Shown piece after piece: positions 1-58,193 of a stretch of DNA of 64,000 nt; position 1 is the stretch's first letter; every line of letters begins with the position of its first letter. The stretch spans positions 81,034,001 through 81,098,000 of the forward strand of contig OX597819.1 of assembly GCA_951406725.2 (NCBI GenBank). The letters are read 5' to 3'. The notes under the pieces were generated by a model, which was not told the origin of the DNA, did no database searches, and saw only the letters and a list, made by a program, of their open reading frames with translations. Position numbers and translations under genes: made by a program. Source of the stretch: Octopus vulgaris. Taxonomy: Eukaryota.

Positions 1-1275
1 AGAAAACAAAAGCACATTGCAGAGCGCGTTATTGAATAACATGGAAATAAAAGTTGAAAATCAATTCTTTCTGTGCTGTCCGATGTGACTCCTGATATAG
101 ATCTTTCCTCTCAAAAGTCTTAAGTTGCTCTGGTAGTTGAAAAACATTGGGAATGTGTATCATTTACGATGAATGGACACCAGGGAAATATGTCTCGTGT
201 ATCACATGTGATACACAGGACAGATAAAGGGTTAATGAAAGTGTGGTGAGAAAAAATGTATCAACGACATCCCATTCCACGACACGAAGCGACGTTGGCC
301 ATGATAAAAACATCTCTGTTGAGAGGTCAAATAATTATTTCAAATAATCCTTTCTTCTAGAGGTACAAGGCCTGAAATTTTGCTGGGAAGGGACTAAGTC
401 GATTTCATCGACCCCAGTGTTTTACTGGTACGTGCTAACGATTCTGCCAGCTCACCGCCTTAGAGCTAATAATAATAGTGGTTTCAAATTTTGCCTCAAT
501 GGCAGCAATTTTGGGGGAGGGGATGAGTCGATTACATCAATCCCAGTGTTTAGCTGGTACTTAATTTATCGACCCCGAAAGGATGAAAGGCAAAGTCGAC
601 CTCGGCGGAATATGAACTCAGAACGTAGCGACGGGCAAAATACCGATAAGTATTTCGTCATGGCTCTCCATGGCTACTTCGAAAGACAGAGGAGTGGAAG
701 GAACGACTAGAGGAAGGAAGAGGGAGGGAGTTATGGGATGAGTTATACAAATGAGAAGTTTGTTTTGTGCAATTTTACTGTATATCGATAGACATATCGA
801 TTACCTGAGTAGGTGGTTTCTCGATAGCTGTGATACAATTACCAAATATGGTATCATTAAAATTCGAACAAAGACTCTACAGGGTCGAATTAGGTGAGCA
901 ATCAATTGCAAGTGTTTTGCCCAAACACGCACGCGTGCACACACAAACACAAACACACACACACACACACACTCACAAATAGCATACAAACACACACAAA
1001 GGTAATGGTGGTGTGATGTGGTGCGTGTGTGTGCGTATGCGTGTGCGCGTGCGTGTTTGTGCATGTGTGCGTGTGCCTTTGTGTTTGTGTTTGTTCTTTA
1101 CCACCACTTGACGACCGGTTCCGCAAAAGAGACAGATAGAATAATGTACCAACCTTAAAAAGAAGTACTTGGGTCGATTTTTCTAATTAAAGCTCTTCGA
1201 GGTGGTACACTAACATGGCCGCAGTCCAATGACTAACACAACTAAAAAATACGAGTACATATATATATATATATA

Positions 1276-27713: not shown

Positions 27714-27949
27714 TTTGAGAAAAACCGATCACCGAGAGGACACAAGTTTGTGAAAGGGCATACGAAAGAGTTACATTAAGAGGGGAGATAACTGACGATT
27801 TCTTGGTACGTCTCAAAACAGATTTATTCATTTGTTTACTTTTACTTAGAGCCAACATAGAAGCTTCTCATTGTAGATGCCTCACCTGCTAGAAATAGCA
27901 GCAAAATACCCCTCAAATAATATCTTACTTTAAGAAAGGTAAAATGCAG

Positions 27950-27974
27950 TATCCATCCATCCATCCATCCATCC

Positions 27975-28049
<75 letters not shown>

Positions 28050-28085
28050 AATCTATCTATCTATCTATCTGTCTGTCTGTCTGTC
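27950..28085 (+). repeat. Compound (CCAT)n(CTAT)n(CTGT)n microsatellite hosting the Tx1 array
   Basis: Directly visible; a second (CCAT)/(CTAT) run lies at 28220-28260. Confidence 0.95.
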
Positions 28086-28212
28086 TTTTTCTTTTTTGCA
28101 GGATCCCTTTTGATAGGAATTTTTTTTCCTCTTCCTTTTTTTCCCTATTCTTTTTTTCTTTCGAAAAGCCAAGCTCTACATTGTGTTCGGCCTTGTGTGG
28201 CTAATAAAGAAA
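28081..28212 (+). mobile_element. Severely 5'-truncated, diverged 3' end of the same Tx1 family
   Basis: Shares GATCCCTTTTGAT, AAGCTCTAC-TTGT and GTGTGGCTAATAAAGAAA with 34275-34382. Confidence 0.8.
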
Positions 28213-28260
28213 TTTATCCGTCCATCCATCCATCCATCCACCCACCTATCTATCTATCTA

Positions 28261-28294
28261 GCCCGGTGTGGCTAATAAAGAAACATATCTATCT
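28261..28294 (+). mobile_element. Tx1 3'-terminal stub, or long target-site duplication
   Basis: GTGTGGCTAATAAAGAAACATATCTATCT (28266-28294) is identical to 34365-34393. Confidence 0.8.
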
Positions 28295-28509
28295 GACAGA
28301 CAGACGCAAGTCAAATGGGCTCCAAGTAAGTTGGTCATTTTGTACGTTCAAAAGTGTTTATTGTTAAATATTTTGTGTTAAAAAGTTGTGAAACAACATC
28401 CACTGCAAACCTTGACTAATATCTACACAAAATTTCGCCCTTTGTGGGCAAAATTTTAAAAAATTCCCGTAGGCCTCGTGTTGTATTTTAGCCATTTTTA
28501 TTTTCAAAA

Positions 28510-30246
28510 ATGGCTACTGGTCACCACGAGGCTGAGGCGCAACTGAAGCGTGACGCCAAAACGAAAAACCAAGATTTCCTGTCACCAAGCGCTGAACTTG
28601 ACTGTGTAAACACTACTTACACCACCATCGACAACAGCAACAAATACAAAACAAAAGTCGCAAGGCCAAGCACCGCCACCAGTGATTCCACCATCAACAC
28701 CGACACCACCACCATGGCAGCATCTGCTACTACAACTGCTATCTCTGCTAACGACACCACTACCAACAACAATAACAATACCAGCAGCACCATCACCGCC
28801 ACCAAAGACCGTGCCGTCAATGCCTCCCTTACTACTAATACCACCGCCGTCACCAAGAACGACAATAACAACAACAATTCCCTTCAGCCACTGTTCACTC
28901 CATCACCAGCAAGTGAAGGTGAGAAAAAAATAACACCGACAATCAAACGAGCTGCCGAAATTTGCGCTAATGCAGGACCAAATTACGCAGACAATTTTCC
29001 ACCCCTTGCCAGTTGCATAATCAGCAACCACAAACCTAATATACCCACAACCCACCCCCCTGCCATCAACACCAACACCACCAGCAGTAACAACAATAAC
29101 AAAACAACAACAAACTTCGCCGAGGCGATAAAAGAAAAAACAACAAGAGTATCGTTTACTGTACAGCAAATAAAAGACTGCAGAGCCCTGATCACCGAAG
29201 AAAACGGCAAAATACAATTACACATACCACAACACATACTGAATGAGGAAAAAAAGAGAACAATTGTATATAAAATAACAAATAACACAACTAAAAGTCC
29301 AGAAAAAGCAAGCACGGACAAAATAGAAAAGTGCCTACACCCCATCTGGGGACACATGGAGTATGTGACTTGGTCGAACAAGTTCGCCCACGTACAGGTG
29401 GTTTTTCAAAATGAAGAGTTGGCAAAGCAATTCTCAACGCTAACTCTTCATTCAGATGAGCTAACAATGACACCCAGTTACCTTGGTCAGAAGGTGACAA
29501 AGGTCATTATCAATAATGTCCCGCAAGTAACAACCGCCATAACATCCAAAATGGAGGACATAAACATCCTGGATATCACTGTTTCGAAACACAAGGACTG
29601 GGTGGGAAAGAGAATGGAGATTCTCTTCCACATAAGCCAAGATGACAATAACAAAATTCCCACCCACGTACATCTTGCGGATGACCGCAAGTTGTATGTA
29701 GTAGTCGAGGGCAGAAGGCCACGCTGCTATACATGTGGGAGTGAGGCACACCTCAAAAAGGAGTGCAAATCTGCCGCGAAACAACGACAACAACAACAAC
29801 AGCCACAGGAAAAACCACAAAAGCCAGCATTATTGCCCACACCACAATATGGACGGCTAATCAAGAAGCTGTATGCAGAAATGCATGAAAAACAACAAAG
29901 AACGGACCAACCCAACCAAACAACACCACCACCTGCGCCAAGAACAGAATCATCACCACCAACAACAACTAAACCAATTCCAACAACGAAGAAGACAAGC
30001 ACCAAGGATGTAGGAGAAACAATCACCACACCAAACCCCCCAGCAACCCCCCCCCCCCCGCACACCACGACAATATCTACAACCGCACATACAGACCCAG
30101 ATGCTTTACCCTTGCCCGCTGCTGATTCGTCAGACGTTTCATCTAACGATGAAAGTTCGACAGAATGGCAAATAGCCACCGGGGGTAAAAGAAAAAGATA
30201 TAAAAAAACAAACAAGAAAACGCAACCAAAGCAGGGAGATACCTGA
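28510..30246 (+). CDS. Tx1 ORF1 gag-like nucleic-acid-binding protein (probably continued to 30587 in another frame)
   Basis: 578-aa ORF with motif VVVEGRRPRCYTCGSEAHLKKEC (CX2CX4HX4C), T/N- and P/T-rich low-complexity arms and basic WQIATGGKRKR. Confidence 0.85.
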   Translation: MATGHHEAEAQLKRDAKTKNQDFLSPSAELDCVNTTYTTIDNSNKYKTKVARPSTATSDSTINTDTTTMAASATTTAISANDTTTNNNNNTSSTITATKDRAVNASLTTNTTAVTKNDNNNNNSLQPLFTPSPASEGEKKITPTIKRAAEICANAGPNYADNFPPLASCIISNHKPNIPTTHPPAINTNTTSSNNNNKTTTNFAEAIKEKTTRVSFTVQQIKDCRALITEENGKIQLHIPQHILNEEKKRTIVYKITNNTTKSPEKASTDKIEKCLHPIWGHMEYVTWSNKFAHVQVVFQNEELAKQFSTLTLHSDELTMTPSYLGQKVTKVIINNVPQVTTAITSKMEDINILDITVSKHKDWVGKRMEILFHISQDDNNKIPTHVHLADDRKLYVVVEGRRPRCYTCGSEAHLKKECKSAAKQRQQQQQPQEKPQKPALLPTPQYGRLIKKLYAEMHEKQQRTDQPNQTTPPPAPRTESSPPTTTKPIPTTKKTSTKDVGETITTPNPPATPPPPHTTTISTTAHTDPDALPLPAADSSDVSSNDESSTEWQIATGGKRKRYKKTNKKTQPKQGDT

Positions 30247-30637
30247 ACCCTGAAAGCTCCATACACAACCAAACAAGCACCAACACCACAAAAACACACA
30301 CAATGCTATCAGCGATAGACACAAAAGACTCCAAACTAATGGAGTACATCACAGCCCACACAAACATCTGTGAAGATGACTTCAAAACTAACAACCATCC
30401 ACGCACTACACCACCCAAACACATCAAAATACTACACATCATACAAACACAACACCACACACTCAAAGCCCTCTTTCCAAATGCGGTTGGGGGGTTCCAA
30501 AAATACCTTTCGCAAAAACTCTATAAAAACCTCCTCCAAGACACATCAAAGAACGAGGAAGCCAAAACTTTCGACACAAGTAAGTAACTCTCTGTACTTT
30601 CCTTTTTGTGTTTTAAAGAACACACCCCAATAGAATC

Positions 30638-33600
30638 ATGGTCAAGATTGGTTGTGTGAATGCGCGTGGCTTGGGGTCTCTTTGGAAACAAGGATACCTC
30701 CTAAATGACATCAGGTCACACGATTTGGGAATCATAGCCATAAGTGAGACCAGACTCCACGAGCCACGGGCCCTAAAGTCCATGTTTGACGGACAGTTTA
30801 ACATTTATTTTGCTCCCTGTCTGCCGAGGATGGGCGGTAGTGGCACCGCGGTACTTTTTCACAAGAGCCTGGATCTCGAAGTCAAGACGATATTCGTAGA
30901 CCCGGAGAGTAGACTGGTCGTTCTGGATGTCGACGGCAGCAATGCAAGTGCTTTTCGACTAGTATCAGTCTACGCGCCGCCTTTAACTGGTCGGCCGGAT
31001 TTCTTTCAACGTCTAGAAGTATTCCTGGGAACGTCTCGTCCTTTACTTTTAGTGGGGGATTGGACACGCATCTAGACTATGTGGGGAGAGACAAAAACAG
31101 AAGGGGATGCAAATGCCTCAGAGACCTGCTCAGACGATTCCAACTGTCTGACAGGTACCGACTCGACCACCCAAATGCACCAACGTGGACATGGAGCAAC
31201 CGCAGTGGGTCGTCGAGATCGTATCTAGATAGAATACTGTGTAGGACAGTAGGCAGGGATAGCTTAGGATGTCCACAATTCCACACAGTCAGCTACACGG
31301 ATCACAAATTCGTGACGTGTACGCTAGACTTAGATAAGGCACATAGACAGGGCCCTGGTTACTGGAAACTGAACGCATCATTCCCGTCCAGACAAGTTTT
31401 CAGAGACAGAATCAACACGTTAGTAAAAAGGGCTTTAACGGGAGCCATTGTCAACGACAAATGGTGGTTCGTCCTCAAGAGAGCAGTAAAAGCGGAAGCA
31501 ATTAGATATAGCAAGGCACTAGCCGTAGATAGAAATAGAGTAGAGGGTGAGTTAGTTAAGAAGTTAGAAGAGGCAATAAGAAGCGGCATCACATCCGACG
31601 TTTTAGCGGCGAGGTTGGCCCTTGACCAACACTCCAACGCCAAACACGAAGGGTGTGCTGTCAGGGCTAGGATGCGTGCTCTAAGGATGGAAGGTGTTGG
31701 AGCCGCGAGGGAGGCCCGGGTGGCGGAGGCGCAGCAGGGCAACAAAACCACCATTCGGTCTCTGGTAGATGAACAAGGGCGCGAATTGCTCGAGCCCAGC
31801 AAGATGTGCAAGACATTTCAGCAGCACTTTGCCCGACTGTACGGGACGAGTGGTGAGCGTGAACGCAGGGTGGACTTCAGTGCCTACCTGCACAGCCTAC
31901 CACGACTCTCGGCAAGAGAGGCAGAGTGCTGCGAAGGTGCCATCACGGTGGCGGAAGTGCGGGACGCGATAGCAGAATGCTCGAGGGACAAATCGCCGGG
32001 TTTGGATGGTCTGCCCTACGAGTTTTACAATTGTATGCCAGACTTGTTTGGAAACGTCTTGGCAGCGGTATACTGCATCTGACAGCAAAACGGGAGCATA
32101 CCCGGTTTTGTGAGTCGAGGAGCCGTAACGCTGTTGAAGAAAGATCCAAACAAGGGAAACATTATAGATAACTTTAGACCAATCACTCTGCTCAATGCAG
32201 ACCTGAAAATTTTGACAAAGGTGTTAGCCAAGAGGTTGGCGCTTGTCATCGAGAAACTGGTCGACAACGCACAAACGTGCGCCGTGCCGGGCCGGAGCAA
32301 CCATGACAACCTCCATCTGATGCGCTACATCATAGACAGAATAGTTAAGGAACCTGGCATGGGTGGGGCCCTGATCAACTTGGATCAATCGAAAGCCTTC
32401 GATACTTGGAGGCAGTCCTGAGAGCAGCTGGTTTCGGTCCCGTCTTCCGCGGCTGGATAGCTGCCTTGTACAGAGGCATCCGTTCGGTAATTCGCATAAA
32501 TGGACATCTATCGAGACCTTTCGACATTGCACGTTCGGTCCGTCAGGGATGCCCCCTCTCGGCGCTTCTATATGTATTGACTCTTGAGCCACTACTGCGG
32601 AAGCTGGCGACTCTGAGGGGCATCCCGCGAGAATTGGGATGCGGGACGAGCGTGTCTGCATACGCGGACGACGTCACCGTCATAGTGTCAAGCCACGAGC
32701 ACATCGAGCTGGTCGGCGAGACACTGAAAGACTACGAAGCGGTGACAGGAGCAAAAATCAACCGGGAAAAGTCAGTGGGCTTGCGGCTCGGCACCTGGAG
32801 AAGCAAGCTCATACCGTCCATCAGTACCTCCGTCGTGGGACGTTGGACGGACGGCCCGGTTGAGTTGCTCGGGGACCTCCAAATGGAGAAGAACTGGAAC
32901 GAGATAACGAGTAGGGTGGTCACTCTCGCCCAGCAATGGGCCGAGAGGAAACTGTCCCTAAAAGGTCGGGCGGAGGTGGCGAACACGTACATCGCGTCCA
33001 TCATCTACAACCGCCTGACCGTCGTACCTTGTCCCGACCCTACCATCACCAAACTAGAACGCATTCTCTTCCGCTTCTTGTGGAAAGGATGCGTCCCGAT
33101 GGTCAGGCGATCCATTTGCTGTCAACACCCGTTAAAAGGAGGGCTGGGTATGCCGTGGTTGATGATGCGCAGACACGCACTGAGACTGCGACATCTCCGG
33201 CTCTATGTAGACGACGGTGAACAGGTGTGGTCGCCGTTTGTGAGGCACGCGTTCCCGCAGCTCGTCTCCATGACCGAACTGCAGTTGTGGATCAAAAAGA
33301 GGCCGAGGAAGGGCGAATGGCACCGCGAGTGTCGTGTTGCTCTCAAGCAACTCTGCCGTCCCGGGTCGACCTTGAGTGACTTCATCACGACCAAAGCATT
33401 CTATAGGGGATTAGTGGAGGGGAGGTACGACGACGATCTTGGGGCAAACCTGGGCGTCGACGAGGAATACCTGACCCGCCTGTTTGAAACGACTTTCCCG
33501 GCCGGGATCTATGGACAACTTCCAGAGATCCCTGGCCTGGCAGCGCTACCCGTTGGGGATAGAGCCATGCTCTATAGGCATGGCTCGAGAAACACGGGGC

Positions 33601-34016
33601 CGAGATGCGGGCAGAGCGACGAAACCGCTCTGCACGCAATCGTGCAGTGTCCAACAATCTCCGACTTGTGGGCTTATGTCGAACGACTGCTGTCACGTGT
33701 GGGACGTGTCGGTTTATCAGCCGAATCTATCGTTAATATCGTCACGCCTCCTTCCTTCAAACGGGAAGGAAGAGCTATTTTTATCATACTTGTGGCTATG
33801 GCGAAAGAATGTATCTGGTGGACGCGCCTGAAAGGATTAGAGACAAATACTTTCCTCTCTGGTCAATCTCTCATCAACTTCTTCAAGTATCACTTGAAGA
33901 GGAAAGTGAGAGTAGAGAGGCAAGTTTTGTCTAGTGAATGTTTTAAAAAAAGATGGGTGAATGTAGCAAGGATGGCACGTATGAATGACGAAGCCACCTT
34001 GACTATGATTCTATGA
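30638..34016 (+). pseudogene. Tx1 ORF2 (APE endonuclease + reverse transcriptase + zinc finger), broken by frameshifts and a stop
   Basis: EN motifs VNARGL, ISET, SVYAP, GDW, SYLDRI, TDHK; WKLN; KSPGLDGLP; FRPITLLNADLKIL; DQSKAFD; VRQGCPLS; YADD; RCGQSDETALHAIVQC. Lesions near 31058, 32080 (TGA), 32403 and ~33500-33550. Confidence 0.92.
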
Positions 34017-35063
34017 ACCGTAAAAATTAATACAGAGAGTTGCTTATTTGCAAAATAAAAAAAAAAAGAAATATAACATGTGACTTCATTGACCGAGGTT
34101 ACCGTGGTCTTTTCCATAAGCTTTTCTTTCCACGGGTAAACCTCACCTGTCCTCCCCTTTACACTCCATATTGACATTTCTGTGATAACGATCCCTATTG
34201 ATCAAATCCCTCGCCCCCTTTTTTTAATTTTATTTTATCCCCCCCCTTTTTTTGTCTTCTTTCTTTCCATTTACGATCCCTTTTGATCGAGAACCAAACC
34301 CCCTTCTTTTACCCCCAAAAGAAAAGCTCTACCTTGTAATTTTGTCCTGTCTGTGTGCAGCCCTGTGTGGCTAATAAAGAAACATATCTATCTATCTTTG
34401 GGAAGGGACTTCCCCCTAACTTTGTTAAAAATGCACATTTTTAATCGAATTTTTTTTCCCTGGAGATAGTGACATTCTTCAAGGGTGTAGATTGGGGTTA
34501 TCCCAATAAAAATTGTTAAAGGAGTTTTCTAAAGAAATGAAATCAATGGAGTAAATTTCTGTATTCCTGTAACTTTATTGGAAATGCCTATTTTGTTTCT
34601 TGTTTCTTTGAATGTAATTTTCCGGAGTTACGTTTTCGAGGGTGTAAAGTACGATTATTTTTGTAAGTTTGAAAATATATGTATTTCTTTTTATCGTAGT
34701 CTACACAATCGAAAATATATGTTGGAAAAATTTCACTAAGAGAACATGCATTTAACAAAGTCGGGTGGATAGGGGAGGATATTCTAAAATATATCTTTTT
34801 TCTAAATCTACACCACTTAAAGTGTATCTTTCGAAAATTTTACTTAAAACGTGCACTTTAAAGAAAGTTATAAGGAAACAAAGGCAAGAGGAGGCATTTC
34901 AATAGGTCATCTCTCTCTCTCTTTCTCTGCACCCTAACCACATAGTTCCGAGTTCAATTGCCTGCGCGGCACCTTGGAAAAGTGTCTCCTACTATAGCCT
35001 CGAGCAGACCAAAGCCTTGTGAGTGGGTTTGGTAGATGGAAAGTGAAAGAAGCCCGTCTTGTA

Positions 35064-38131: not shown

Positions 38132-39034
38132 TATTTTCCTTGGAAATGTTCTAGCGTAATATTAACCTCTGTTAGAGTCATCAGTCTCGGAGAGACTACA
38201 TAGGTTATGTGCCCTTTAACAGTCACCTTTCCTTCTTTTTTACTGCCTTATGAAAAGAAACAGCATGCTACAAAAATTCTAGAAAAGCTCGTTTTATAAA
38301 TGTCAAAATGTTACGAAAGGGGTTAAAGTTATACGTAGTAGGTAATACGACAAAAGTACTCGATCTCCATATATTTATGTATAATGAATTAAGCAACTAA
38401 ATAACCTTTAGTGTTTTGAAATAAACAATCTACAGTATTTCGAACAAGACTAGAAATTGGCCTGATGGTATAAATTATGTGGAAAGTTATTTCCCTTGAA
38501 AAATGTTTGTTGTAATAACAGAGTTCTTTCCCTTGAACTATTATATTTTTGTGATTTTTAAATATTTTATTTTCGTATTTAAGATTTAAATAACGATAGC
38601 AAGTCTTGGACAAGGTTGCAAAAGAAGACGAAATGATACTGATACAAACTAGCTAATTGGTAGATTCATTCATTGATTCATGGTCTCTTCTACTTGTTTT
38701 ACTCATTGAAATGCGGGCATGCTGGGGCACTTTCTTGAAGGGCTTAGTCGACCAAAATCGACGACACTACACATTCAATGGATCTCTGTCTCTCTCCTTG
38801 TGTCTTCCCTTTGTTTGTCTGTCTATCTGTCCGTCTCTCTCTCTATGTATGTATGTATGTATGTATGTATGTATGTGTTTGCCTTTCATCCTTTCGGGGT
38901 CGATTAAATAAGTACCAGTTACGCACTGGGGTCGATATAATCGACTTAATCCGTTTGTTTGTCCTTGTTTGTCCCCTCTGTGTTTAGCCCCTTGTGGGTA
39001 GTAAAGAAATAATATATATGTGTGTGTGTGTGTG

Positions 39035-39235
39035 TGTGGAGGCGCAATGGCCCAGTGGTTAGGGCAGCGGAATCGCAGGACGTAGGATCGCGGTTTCGAT
39101 TCCCAGACCGGGCGTTGTGAGTGTTTATTGAGCGAAGACACCTAAAGTTCAACGAGGCTCCGGCAGGGGGTGGTGGCGATCCCTGCTGTACTCTTTCGCC
39201 ACAGCTTTCTCTCACTCTTCCTTCTGTTGGCCGGC
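39035..39235 (+). mobile_element. SINE family C, 5' part
   Basis: TGTGGAGGCGCAATGGCCCAGTGGTTAGGGCAGCGG..GTTTCGATTCC. Confidence 0.8.
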
Positions 39236-39529: not shown

Positions 39530-39895
39530 CAGGAGTGGCTGTGTGGTAAGTAGCATCTTGGGCAAGTGTCTTCTGCTATATAGCCCCAGGCCGGGCAATG
39601 CCTTGTGAGTGGATTTGGTAGACGGAAACTGAAAGAAGCCTGTCGTATATATGTATATATATATATATGTCTGTGTGTGGGTTTGTGTGTCTGTGTTTGT
39701 TCCCCTAGCATTGCTTGACAACCGATGCTGGTGTGTTTACGTCCCCGTCACTTAGCGGTTCGGCAAAAAGAGACCGATAGAATAAGTACTGGGCTTACAA
39801 AAAGAATAAGTCCCGGAGTCGAGTTGCTCGACTAAAGGCGGTGCTCCAGCATGGCCGCAGTCAAATGACTGAAACAAGTAAAAGAGTAAAGAGAA
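39530..39895 (+). mobile_element. SINE family A copy (young)
   Basis: High identity to 44015-44423 with a deletion in the head. Confidence 0.88.
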
Positions 39896-40439: not shown

Positions 40440-40855
40440 GGCGGCGAGCTGGCAGAATCGTTAGCACGCCGGGCGAAAAGCGTAGCCGTATTTCGTCTGC
40501 CGTTACGTTCTGAGTTCAAATTCCGCCGAGGTCGACTTTGCCTTTCATCCTTTCGGGGTCGATAAATTAAGTATCAGTTAAGCACTGGGGTCAATATAAT
40601 CGACTTAATCCCTTTGTCTGTCCTTGTTGGTCCTCTCTATGTTTAGCCCCTTGTGGGTAATAAAGAAACAGGTATCTCGTCTGCTGTTACGTTCTGAGTT
40701 CAAATTCCGCCGAGGTCGACTTTGCCTTTCATCCTTTTGGGAGTCGATAAATTAAGTACCAGTTACGCATTGGGGTCGATGTAATCGACTTAATACCTTT
40801 GTCTGTCCTTGTTTGTCCCCTCTATGCTTAGCCCCACGTGGGCAATAAGGAAATA
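40440..40855 (+). mobile_element. SINE family B dimer with 15-bp TSD
   Basis: Head GGCGGCGAGCTGGCAGAATCGTTAGCAC, body GTCGACTTTGCCTTTCATCCTTTCGGGGTCGAT, Tx1-like tail twice. AATATGCTATATCAT at 40420-40434 and 40856-40870. Confidence 0.88.
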
Positions 40856-41067: not shown

Positions 41068-41676
41068 TTTTAATTTTTGGCACAAGGGCAGCAAATTCGG
41101 GGTGGGTTAAGTCGATTACATCAATCCCAGTGCTCAACTGGTATTTAATCTATCGACTCCGAAAGGATGAAAGGCAAAGTCGACCTCGGCGGAATTTGAA
41201 CTCAGAATGTAAGGACATGAAATACCGCTAAGCATTTTACCCAGTGTACAAACGATTCTTATTTCTTTATTGCCCACAAGGGGCTACACACAGAGGGGAC
41301 AAACAAGGACAGACAAACGGATTAAGTCGATTATATCGTCCCCAGTGCGTAAGTGGTACTTATTTAATTGACCCCGAAAGGATGAAAGGCAAAGTCAACC
41401 TCGGCGGAATTTGAACTCGGAACGTAGCGGCAGACGAAATGCCTATTTCTTTACTACCCATAAGGGGCTAAACACAGAGAGGACAAACAAGGACAGACAA
41501 ACGAATTAAGTCGATTACATTGACCCCAGTGCATAACTGGTACTTATTTAATCGACCCCGAATGGATGAAATGCAAAGTCGACCTCGGCGGAATTTGAAC
41601 TCAGAAGGTAACGGCAGACGAAATACCTTTAAGCATTTCGCCCGGCGTGCTAACGTTTTCGCCAGCGCTCCGCCTT
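41068..41676 (-). mobile_element. SINE family B trimer
   Basis: Three body copies; flanked by a ~20-bp imperfect direct repeat ending CATTAATAATGA (41048-41067, 41677-41696). Confidence 0.85.
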
Positions 41677-43345: not shown

Positions 43346-43698
43346 TCAGCATTTTTGATGGGGAGGGATTAAGTCGATTACGTCAACCCCAGTGCTCAAC
43401 TGGTACTTATTTTATCGAACCCGAAAGGATAAAAGTTAAATTAGATACCGGCGGCATTTGAACTCACAACATAAAGACAGATGAATTCTTTTCTACTCTA
43501 GACACAAGGCCCGAAATTTTGGGCGAGGGGCCAGTCGATTAGATCAACCCCACTACGCAACTGGTACTAAATTTATCGACTCCGAAAGGATGAAAGACAA
43601 AGTCGACCTCGGCGGAATTTGAACTCGGAACGTAACGTCAAACGAAATACCGGTGAGTATTGCTTCTAGCATGCTAACGATTCTGCCAACTCGCCGCC
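43346..43698 (-). mobile_element. SINE family B dimer
   Basis: Two body copies joined near 43485. Confidence 0.8.
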
Positions 43699-46572: not shown

Positions 46573-46912
46573 ATCGACCCCGAAAGAATGAAAGATAAAT
46601 TCGACCGCGGCAGAATTTGAACTCAGAACGTAAAACCAAGAGAAACACCTCTAAGCATTTTGCCCGGTGTTGCTAACAATTCTTATTTTTTTATTGCCCA
46701 CAAGGGGCTAAACATAGAGGGGACAAACAAGGACAGACAAAGAGATTAAGTCGATTACATCGACCCCAGTGCGTAACTGGTACTTAATTTATCGACCCCG
46801 AAAGGATGAAAGGCAAAGTCGACCTCGGCGGAATTTGAACTCAGAACGTAACAGCAGACGAAATACCGCTAAGTATTTCGCCCGGTGTGCTATCGATTCT
46901 GCCAACTCGTAG
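46573..46912 (-). mobile_element. SINE family B dimer (second unit truncated)
   Basis: Full unit with Tx1-like tail joined to AGAATTGTTAGC of a second unit near 46683. Confidence 0.8.
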
Positions 46913-48236: not shown

Positions 48237-49414
48237 CATAATAATATAAATCAATATAAATACATATGTTCTATATTCAATGTTACAGTTGGTCAACATA
48301 ATATTATATTACAATATAGAAAACATACATATATTCATATTCAAATGCAGATATACAAAGTCAAGAGTTCATTATATTAAGTTACAAAATGTCATTAATA
48401 TTACCATCATTACTATTATCATTACCACTATTTCTACTAATATCATTATTATTATTATTATTAATAACATTTATACCAGCAAAACAATATATGCATCACG
48501 CGGTTAGCAACATAATAGCAAAAACAACAACAACAATAATACTACAGTACCATGCAAAGCATTAAAGTTCGGCATATACATATAAAATGAAAAATGAGAG
48601 ACATTGGTTTGCATGATATTAAGTTCCACAAGTGTACAAACATACATGCGATTGCAGGCTATAATTTCGACTGAGACACGTATAAAGTATTACGTTCAGA
48701 AATAGTTAAGAATCGAGCGCTAAATATGATTGGCCGTTATATTTAAATTTCAATTGTCTTCGTTACGGTTGGTTTGTTAAGAAACACCCACACACGCACA
48801 CATGCAAACGTGCGCCCACACACGGTTTTGAAAGCAAAGACGAAAAAAAATTATTCTTTGTGATCACGTGACTGTTTAAAGCGTAGGCGGTATGATTTTG
48901 GCGTAATTTTACGGTGTGGGCGAAGTATAAAGACTACTATTGCCCACGTGACGAGTTGGTTGGAGCTGGGAGTTCGTGCGGGAAGCTGGTTTGCTGAGCT
49001 CGCCTACGTGGTCTGTTGTGCTGTAAGTGGTTTCAGGAGGCCGTGTGCGGCGTAATAATACATATATATGGTCACAACCTCAAGGCTGATGGCGAGCTGG
49101 CAGAAACGTTAGCACGCCGGACGAAATACGTAGTCGTATTTCGTCTGCTGTTACGTTCTGAGTTTAAATTCCGCCGAGGTCGACTTTGCCTTTCATCCTT
49201 TCGAGGTCGATAAATAAAGTACCAGTTTCGCACTGAGGTTGATGTTATCGACTTAATCCCTTTGTCTGTCTTTGTTTGTCCTCCCTGTGTTTAGCCCCTT
49301 GTGGGCTAGTATATATATATATATATATATAAAGTTAATCCAAACATGAAAACACCAAGAGAAAACACAACGTGGAACAAATATAGTATTATTGGACGCT
49401 CAGGAAGGAAGGGA

Positions 49415-57443: not shown

Positions 57444-58193
57444 TGGCAGAAACGTTAGCACACCAGACAAAATGCTTAGCGGTATTTCGTCTGCCGTTAC
57501 GTTCAGAGTTCAAATTCCGCTGAGGTCGACTTTGCCTTTCATCCTTTCGGGGTCGATAAATTAAATACCAGTTACGCACTGGGGTCGATGTAATCGACTT
57601 AATCCGTCTGTCTGTCCTTGTTTGTCTCCTTCGTGTTTAGCCCCTTGTGGGTAGTAAAGAAATAGGTATTTCGTTCGCCTTTACATTTTGAGTTCAAAAC
57701 GGGTTCGATAAAATAAGTACCAGTCAAGCACTGGATTCGATGAAATCGTCTTACACCCTCCACCAAAATTTCAGGCATTGTGCTTATAGTAGAAAGTATT
57801 ATTCTTTTCTACTCAAGGCACAAGTTCCGAAATTTTGGGGGAGGGGGCCAGTCGATTAGATCGACCTCAGTATACAATTAGTACTTAATTTACCGAACCC
57901 GAAAGGCAAAGTCAACCTCGGCGGAATTTGAATTCAGAACGTAGCAGCAGACGAAATACCTATTTCCTTACTACCCACAAGGGGCTAAACACAGAGGGGG
58001 ACAAACAAGGACAGACAAACGGATTAAGTCGATTATACCGACCCCAGTGCGTAACTGGTACTTATTTAATCGACCCCGAAATGATGAAAGGCAAAGTCGA
58101 CCTCGGCGGAATTTGAACTCAGAACGTAGCGACAGGCGAAATACAGTTACGCATTTCGCCCGGCGTGCTAATGGTTCTGCCAACTCGCCGCCT
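57444..58193. mobile_element. Two SINE family B dimers tail-to-tail (+ 57444-57800, - 57804-58193)
   Basis: The minus-strand dimer is flanked by a 17-bp TSD TAGTAGAAAGTATTATT (57787-57803, 58194-58210). Monomers or fragments also at ~350-657, 4800-5100, 26630-26820, 38877-39012, 43735-43945, 49091-49306, 55965-56415, 58220-58410. Confidence 0.85.

Follow-up and report, generated by a model that had tools for sequence, protein, structure and literature searches.

A poly(A)-free 3′ end common to L1/Tx1-group LINEs and a SINE tail in Octopus vulgaris points to a probable Tx1-lineage partner

Results and Discussion

Homology between the LINE and SINE ends

We analyzed a 64,000-nt stretch of the Octopus vulgaris genome (hereafter the window; G000:C6:81034001-81098000 in a 2.80-Gb genome of 227 contigs), which is AT-rich and packed with microsatellites and short interspersed elements (SINEs). 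The window contains a decayed full-length long interspersed element (LINE) of the L1/Tx1 group, family F1, and several copies of an apparently tRNA-headed SINE carrying the tail that we call B (SINE B). Sequence comparison gave good support for homology between the SINE B tail and the 45-nt, poly(A)-free end of these LINEs. This end probably serves as a handle for the open reading frame 2 protein (ORF2p) of the Tx1 lineage, most likely of an F6-type family. A first-pass annotation of the window had proposed a Tx1 partner on the basis of the F1 element; the partner is probably to be reassigned from F1 to a sister family.

The terminal element of the window LINE (positions 34332-34384 of the window) was compared with a majority SINE B tail, built from 83 copies in evenly spaced genomic stretches totalling 1 Mb. 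The global alignment showed 39/47 identities plus one 4-nt gap. The 40/47 and 4-nt gap counted in the first-pass annotation hold for the AATAAA variant of the tail, found in 30/83 copies; AGTAAA is present in 52/83. The four window copies named there gave 39, 39, 35, and 39 of 47, and the small stems described before the hexamer are present in both the LINE and the SINE.

The significance of this similarity was assessed by local score against 10,000 dinucleotide shuffles, a comparison fixed beforehand as a test of the proposal. The F1 end scored 44 against SINE B (34/42 identities), with a shuffle mean of 15.2 and a maximum of 33, so the score was reached by 0/10,000 shuffles. The same 0/10,000 was obtained for every end in the set F1, F2, F3, F6, F7, F8, and H, the last being an ORF1-only element. 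Without its last 10 nt, the F1 end gave a score reached by 5/10,000 shuffles, and without the A-rich end the value was still 0/10,000 for F2, F3, F6, and F7. As an empirical control, every A[AG]TAAA site (n = 3,493) in 1 Mb was scored against the tail with a cutoff of 30. The 94 sites scoring at least 30 comprised 86 SINE B, two SINE B fragments, six Tx1-lineage ends (one of them, L259, assigned by eye), and nothing else. A better match to a non-Tx1 element was thus absent from these sites, in a control that is not exhaustive because the 1-Mb sample had few non-Tx1 LINE reverse transcriptase (RT) regions (four loci were best matched by the CR1-like query; RTE and R4 were not queried).

These results bear on the possibility that chance or convergence accounts for the resemblance of two short ends, both T/GT-rich and bearing an A-rich signal. 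The region is indeed short and of low complexity, and the score of the F4 end was reached by 47/10,000 shuffles. The shuffle values for the other seven families, the persistence of the signal in F2, F3, F6, and F7 after removal of the A-rich end, and the lack of any unrelated site scoring 30 among about 3,400 non-SINE A[AG]TAAA sites argue against it. Chance similarity is largely refuted, and we regard it as hardly credible.

The end also belongs to the LINE itself. We excised 30 F1 loci (the window copy and 29 others), and all 30 carry the end continuous with the 3′ untranslated region (UTR), as does the family consensus; F2, F3, F6, F7, and F8 behave likewise. The explanation that the window LINE merely abuts a SINE tail was ruled out by the same continuous end at the 30/30 F1 loci.

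Conservation of the end across the lineage

Searches with other queries yielded eight LINE families (F1-F8) together with ORF1-only relatives. F1 is abundant and includes copies with an intact ORF2, F2 is 0.7% diverged, and the older families F4 and F5 gave 89 exact pattern matches against 0 in the control. Consensuses were built from terminal-motif subsets (F3, 14/19 loci; F6, 21/30; F4 and F5, 5 and 12 of 30 pattern loci; F7, 11 loci; F8, 2; H, 4). ORF2 identity between F1/F2 and F7/F8 is 57-58%, and the F6 fragment shows 85% identity with F7 and F8 and 65% with F1. The 3′ UTRs of F1/F2 and F7/F8 were alignable only in their last 40-52 nt, in three of four pairs.

In each of the ten consensus ends, that of SINE B among them, A[AG]T is immediately preceded by a 4-bp stem with a 5-6-nt loop. 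The stem is AGCC/GGCT or GGCC/GGCT with a 6-nt loop in F1-F3, GGCC/GGCC with a CTTGT loop in F4-F5, and GCCC/GGGT in F6, F7, F8, H, and SINE B, and stem pair 2 switches from G-C to C-G among the consensuses. This pattern is consistent with a conserved structure but is not proof of one. Runs of 12 A were detected in 0/30 F1, 0/30 SINE B, and 2/30 F6 ends. The conserved poly(A)-free end is a lineage-wide feature of the L1/Tx1-group LINEs of this genome. From the sequences, we infer that the Tx1 lineage would recognize its 3′ end stringently.

Insertion targets and the probable partner

The insertion sites of F1 and SINE B differ. Among 20 fetched F1/F2 copies, 14 full-length ones show their 5′ end, and (TATC)3 directly precedes it in 13; TATC repeats follow 24/30 F1 ends, whereas (TATC)3 was found within 100 nt of 0/68 SINE B units on either side. 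SINE B is instead flanked by duplications of 11-23 bp (median 16) in 39/68 units, compared with 1.5% in shuffled pairs. Because F1 targets (TATC)n while SINE B avoids it, F1 is probably not the partner. The proposal that a Tx1 family mobilizes this SINE therefore stands at the level of the lineage but not for the window element.

F6 fits better. It is dispersed, with TATC at 0/30 ends, and shows duplications of 14-19 bp at 9/30 loci, many of its 5′ ends lying beyond the flank examined. Its end scores 56 against SINE B (39/45 identities) and has the identical stem-loop, GCCC-CTTGT-GGGT. Among the 83 SINE copies, F6 was the sole best match for 57 and F1 for one.

F1, or the TATC-lineage families F2 and F3, might nevertheless mobilize SINE B if pairing between the SINE 3′ end and the target overrides the target preference. 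The F1 end is significantly similar and its family abundant with intact ORF2 copies, F3 scores 54 and has the AAAGAAA end of the SINE, which F6 lacks, and the ages of SINE B and the TATC-lineage families overlap. Downstream of the SINE tail, the bases form three classes (TAGGT, 85; TATAT, 27; TAAGA, 15; n = 166), which suggests that short RNA-target pairing helps priming or influences SINE site choice. In opposition to this stand the (TATC)n counts given above and the difference between the stem and loop of F1 and those of SINE B. Target choice is, moreover, set chiefly by the endonuclease (Kojima 2015, PMC4494074; the papers given by PMC number are cited here for parts of their text). We consider mobilization by F1 or its TATC-lineage relatives very unlikely.

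Several observations weigh against an F6-type partner or against the recognition of a structured end. Age does not separate F6 from F1 or F3: the non-CpG divergences of SINE B (5.4%), F6 (3.8%), F1 (3.6%), and F3 (5.0%) overlap, and the LINE values are biased low because the samples are best matches. F3, a TATC-lineage family, scores 54 against 56 for F6, and F6 is far rarer (885 first-look candidates) than SINE B (about 235,000 copies, extrapolated). No LINE end matches the B-specific tail over its first 14-17 nt, and a hybrid pattern joining a LINE-type upstream part to the exact SINE stem gave 0 matches; a LINE ending exactly as SINE B does was not found. The ends fold no more stably than shuffled sequences, with z-scores of -0.14 (F1), 0.31 (F6), and -0.24 and -1.48 (two SINE copies). 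Covariation on the MAFFT alignment was not significant, as 223/500 shuffles reached two two-sided changes; in-register pairing needs a hand-placed loop gap and relies on about two independent changes. The RT tree described below contained no named Tx1 reference. A relative of F6/F8 outside the sample may be the actual partner.

Spacing after the stem and a possible mechanism

The frequency of the majority base across 51 terminal SINE B copies was at least 0.90 through position 12 after the stem, apart from an A/G polymorphism at position 2, and 0.41 at position 13. In F7, the duplication begins 12 nt past the stem in three of six copies and 11 nt past it in two; it was not found in one. Two F8 copies diverge after 12 nt, F1 and F2 enter TATC repeats at 13-14, and the F6 spacing varies by one with its A-run. 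On the simplest reading, a protein would bind the stem-loop and copying would begin at a fixed distance from it; RNA cleavage at that point is an alternative.

On the preferred reading, in which an F6-type ORF2p mobilizes SINE B, the LINE end would have passed by template switching to a tRNA-headed SINE that carried the older tails A1 and A2. The ORF2p would grip the stem-loop and the upstream pyrimidine run of the SINE RNA and nick the DNA. Target-primed reverse transcription would then begin 12 nt downstream of the stem, possibly assisted by a few bases of pairing between the RNA end and the target. A second-strand nick about 16 bp off would generate the duplication.

Alternatively, the Tx1-derived tail could be an RNA 3′-processing or stability signal, or a passenger, with copying carried out by a less selective LINE such as the abundant RTE-BovB. 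The tail contains an AATAAA-like hexamer, the evidence for the hairpin is weak, and RTE-BovB has expanded in octopuses (PMC10294476, PMC8967140). Non-B tails of the same SINE also have duplications of similar length (L214, by eye), so duplication length alone cannot name the enzyme. Against this alternative, the hexamer is AGTAAA in 52 of the 83 SINE copies, poly(A) follows neither the LINE nor the SINE, and the junction lies about 6 nt past the hexamer. Canonical cleavage sites lie farther from the hexamer than that. In addition, SINE B and the LINEs have the 12-nt spacing in common, and SINE B has no terminal microsatellite like those on plant RTE partners (PMC3472496). We consider this alternative unlikely.

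The LINE of the window

The features of the LINE and its surroundings are as follows.

28295..34384, + strand: full-length L1/Tx1-group LINE of family F1, a decayed copy, recognized from ORF layout, Pfam endonuclease and RT matches, and intact relatives
28429..28457, + strand: 5′ UTR hairpin of the LINE; its core resembles the 3′ hairpin (z -2.99, 0/200 shuffles)
28510..30587, + strand: ORF1 with a CCHC knuckle, in two frames (stop-to-stop frames 28492-30246 and 30204-30587)
30617..34016, + strand: ORF2 (APE endonuclease, RT, zf-RVT) in four pieces, with two frameshifts and one stop, from ORF layout and Pfam
34017..34331, + strand: 3′ UTR body, not alignable with the sister lineage F7/F8 (the best local alignment covers only the last 40-50 nt)
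34332..34384, + strand: conserved terminal element with a pyrimidine/GT-rich run, the stem AGCC/GGCT (34359-34372), and a 6-nt loop
34373-34384, + strand: A-rich 12-nt spacer of the terminal element
34385..34397, + strand: (TATC)n target remnant, without poly(A)
28085..28216, + strand: 3′ end of the related family F3, 5′-truncated and lying in the same (TATC)n tract
28260..28294, + strand: tiny F1-like 3′-end fragment with TATC repeats

The window ORF1 is likely broken by a frameshift. In intact F1 copies, ORF1 spans 728-735 codons stop to stop, and its zf-CCHC match is weak and below the Pfam cut-off. A stop-free ORF2 of 1152 codons is present in 10 of 12 F1 copies fetched from elsewhere, and Pfam detected the APE endonuclease, RT, and zf-RVT in intact relatives.

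The full-length LINE appears to have inserted into the F1-like fragment and TATC repeats at 28260..28294. The (TATC)n tract at 27940-28294 contains three successive Tx1-lineage insertions, namely two truncated ends and the full-length LINE, and similar clusters were observed in L283, L286, and L290. The 5′ UTR hairpin is present in F1 and F2 copies. By eye, its core (28429-28457) also resembles the A1 SINE tail; a profile search with the A1 and A2 tails gave no match to this hairpin at E 1 or less.

Clade placement

The closest solved structure to the LINE ORF2 is human L1 ORF2p (E 3e-55), with R2 at E 3e-21. A quick RT tree, built from 35 of 37 candidate rows with a CR1-like outgroup (the CR1/L2-like RT fragments L144:2066-3013 and L162:6040-6981), split the LINEs from the outgroup with an SH-like approximate likelihood ratio test (SH-aLRT) support of 99. 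With an APE endonuclease, an RT, a C-terminal zinc motif, and their greatest similarity to L1, these LINEs belong to the L1 group. The narrower label Tx1 is suggested by the domain layout, the weak ORF1 CCHC match, and target specificity, the tree holding no named Tx1 element: the TX1-named homologue P0091 was dropped from it (alignment too brief), and a cluster look-up for named Tx1 homologues returned none.

Target preferences of the Tx1 type were seen in F1/F2, which use (TATC)n, and in F7, which uses one 12-bp site. The ends of F4/F5 (L181-L210) run into (ATT)n or (ATC)n, and L143:4200-4330 runs into (TC)n. These tracts, examined on the 3′ side only, hint at further microsatellite targets of the lineage.

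ORF1-only elements and F7

An exact pattern of the F6 end gave 118 matches, and 0 in the control, many of them in arrays with a 1,674-bp period. L341 (G000:C10:47669960-47671760) is a 1,675-bp ORF1-only, HAL1-like element with an F6-type 3′ end, and long, near-identical tandem arrays of elements of this type occur at C1:142.95 Mb, C8:9.60-9.63 Mb, and C10:47.67-47.70 Mb. L341 codes for an ORF1 homologue (E 3e-13) without an ORF2, and is 99% identical to its neighbour over their overlap. It has 42/45 terminal nt in common with F6 and nothing else at the DNA level. A second ORF1-only element, on the minus strand at L152:5786-8000, has an F1-type end, and ORF1-only H elements lie directly upstream of four of the six F7 copies examined, behind the same 12-bp duplication. 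Elements that lack an RT yet retain exactly this end are what a cis-acting handle would predict.

F7 (L322-L334) is a young family with an ORF2 of 1132 codons and many identical copies, some in tandem arrays of ~5.27 kb. Its copies enter a single site of an ORF1-like host sequence, generating a 12-bp duplication, and the H elements use the same site upstream.

Relation to known SINE/LINE systems

SINE/LINE pairs with a common tail are textbook material, but the L1 group is the noted exception. Stringent pairs are known for the L2, CR1, and RTE clades, among them UnaL2/UnaSINE1 of eel and ZfL2-1/2 of zebrafish (PMC4176376, PMC3747384). The octopus elements resemble the UnaL2 and ZfL2 pairs in their short common 3′ tail, small stem-loop, and lack of poly(A). 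SINEs of that type depend on the LINE ORF2p, a dependence that the sequences suggest for SINE B. Unlike in the L2, CR1, and RTE pairs, the putative partner belongs to the L1/Tx1 group (APE, RT, and zf-RVT, with a CCHC ORF1), duplications are 11-23 bp long, and SINE B has no terminal repeat of its own.

Closer counterparts are ZmSINE2/3 with LINE1-1_ZM in maize, SINEX-3_CR with L1-1_CR in Chlamydomonas, and related sorghum SINEs (PMC3472496), which were taken as evidence for stringent recognition in the L1 clade (PMC3472496). Only three L1-tail SINEs, all from green plants, are described among 58 pairs (PMC3472496, PMC3747384). As in those plant and algal cases, LINEs of the L1 group have a conserved last 45 nt and a putative hairpin in common with an apparently tRNA-headed SINE. 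Unlike the maize and Chlamydomonas elements, the octopus ones represent an animal Tx1-like lineage with no poly(A) or poly(T) ends, with ORF1-only passengers, and with a fixed 12-nt spacing.

For the crocodilian SINEU, a link to Tx1-Mar was argued from target, age, and 5′ heads (Kojima 2015, PMC4494074); there too, Tx1-clade machinery has been proposed to mobilize a SINE. Unlike for SINEU, for which the cited part of that paper reports no LINE with a matching 3′ part, the evidence here is a common 3′ tail, and the head appears to be of the tRNA type. Among Tx1 families that target microsatellites, Kibi uses (TC)n and Koshi (TTC)n (PMC4494074). F1 and F2 similarly lie inside a microsatellite on both sides and are often clustered, although their target is (TATC)n; the likeness is one of target type. 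HAL1 elements are ORF1-only derivatives of L1 (PMC5753468). L341, H, and L152 resemble them in encoding an ORF1 homologue without an ORF2, but differ in retaining the poly(A)-free conserved end and in forming tandem or site-specific arrays.

Reported partners of mollusc SINEs are CR1 and L2, the others being given as unknown (PMC4758252, PMC4824008), and the partner LINEs of MetaSINEs are described as unknown in the cited part of Nishihara 2016. The octopus tRNA SINEs OR1/OR2 are cited as CORE-SINEs (PMC4824008, PMC4758252). By description, the SINE family of the window may resemble OR1/OR2 and MetaSINEs in its putative tRNA-type head, common central domain, and exchangeable tails (A1, A2, and B). 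Octopus repeat papers list L1-Tx1 and SINEs unpaired, as far as their cited parts go (PMC13282606, PMC10294476, PMC8967140); an annotation of O. vulgaris includes 80 L1-Tx1 consensuses (PMC13282606). "Tx1" is absent from the main text and supplement of Kojima 2018 and from the main text of Nishihara 2016, the mentions of "TX1" in the cited part of Hayashi 2014 (PMC4176376) are construct names, and the pairs tabulated in the cited part of PMC3747384 include no Tx1 or mollusc row. We found no Tx1-SINE common tail in the literature; Repbase, Dfam, and SINEBase were outside this search and may already contain a note of the pair.

Stringency was proposed by Ohshima for the ancestral elements of the L1 clade, with a test in non-mammalian lineages named as open (PMC3472496, PMC3747384). 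The present genome offers an animal L1/Tx1 case with many intact, near-identical ORF2 copies, diverged families with different targets and one end, and natural passengers, which makes the stringency question directly testable and comparable with the solved structures of human L1 ORF2p. It also suggests what may drive one of the large SINE expansions in the octopus genome, and a short cis-handle combined with target-specific endonucleases may interest builders of RNA-templated insertion tools.

A broader proposal, which we advance tentatively and hold to be doubtful, is that animal Tx1 elements are stringent and poly(A)-independent, with copying starting 12 nt from a CTTGT-type stem-loop, and that they serve SINE B, the ORF1-only elements, and the A1/A2 tails alike. 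If so, Tx1 machinery would account for most of the SINE expansion in this lineage, and the relaxed recognition of poly(A) would have arisen late among animal L1-group elements, on the mammalian branch.

SINE B and its copies

The SINE B copies of the window are as follows.

38878..39009, + strand: 5′-truncated SINE B
40440..40853, + strand: tandem unit (40440-40668 full; 40672-40853 from position 49) with a 15-bp flanking duplication, by eye
41262..41674, - strand: tandem unit (41674-41446, 41440-41262)
46686..46909, - strand: SINE B, then SINE-internal sequence
49091..49311, + strand: SINE B, its end decayed into (TA)n
57444..57662, + strand: SINE B, then SINE-internal sequence
57963..58192, - strand: SINE B, then SINE-internal sequence

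The first-pass annotation called this the dominant SINE, which is correct in that B outnumbers every other single tail of its head-and-core family (84/170 classified cores, from 184 core matches in 1 Mb), the others being A1, A2, and decayed forms. In DNA, however, it is outweighed by the repeat at window 39530-39890 (265 matches and 53.8 kb per Mb, versus 90 B-tail matches). The density of SINE B, ~84-90 per Mb, corresponds to roughly 235,000 copies when extrapolated from 84 per Mb.

The SINE head has A/B-box-like motifs at positions about 10-25 and 70-80, by eye. ARAGORN (0 genes) and Rfam gave no tRNA match in the head, and Rfam returned only microsatellite-driven matches below the gathering score. 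The core may resemble the Meta-domain. The A1/A2 tails (window 526-657, 41104-41237, and 43533-43698, and random loci) have a short stem around a CTTGT loop, and a profile search of the sample for their partner LINE yielded SINE fragments only.

SINE B inserts into copies of its own family near position 48, giving rise to tandem units (40440-40853, 41262-41674, 57444-57760, and 57850-58192). Own-family internal sequence follows 29/83 B tails, mostly from position 46-48. In 39 units, rare variants of the upstream copy at positions 50-63 recur downstream in 6/21 cases (shuffle mean 1.2; 2/2,000 shuffles), and no such recurrence was seen at positions 64-89. This restriction is expected if B entered an existing SINE copy with a 14-16-bp duplication. 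Another interspersed repeat lies at window 39035-39230.
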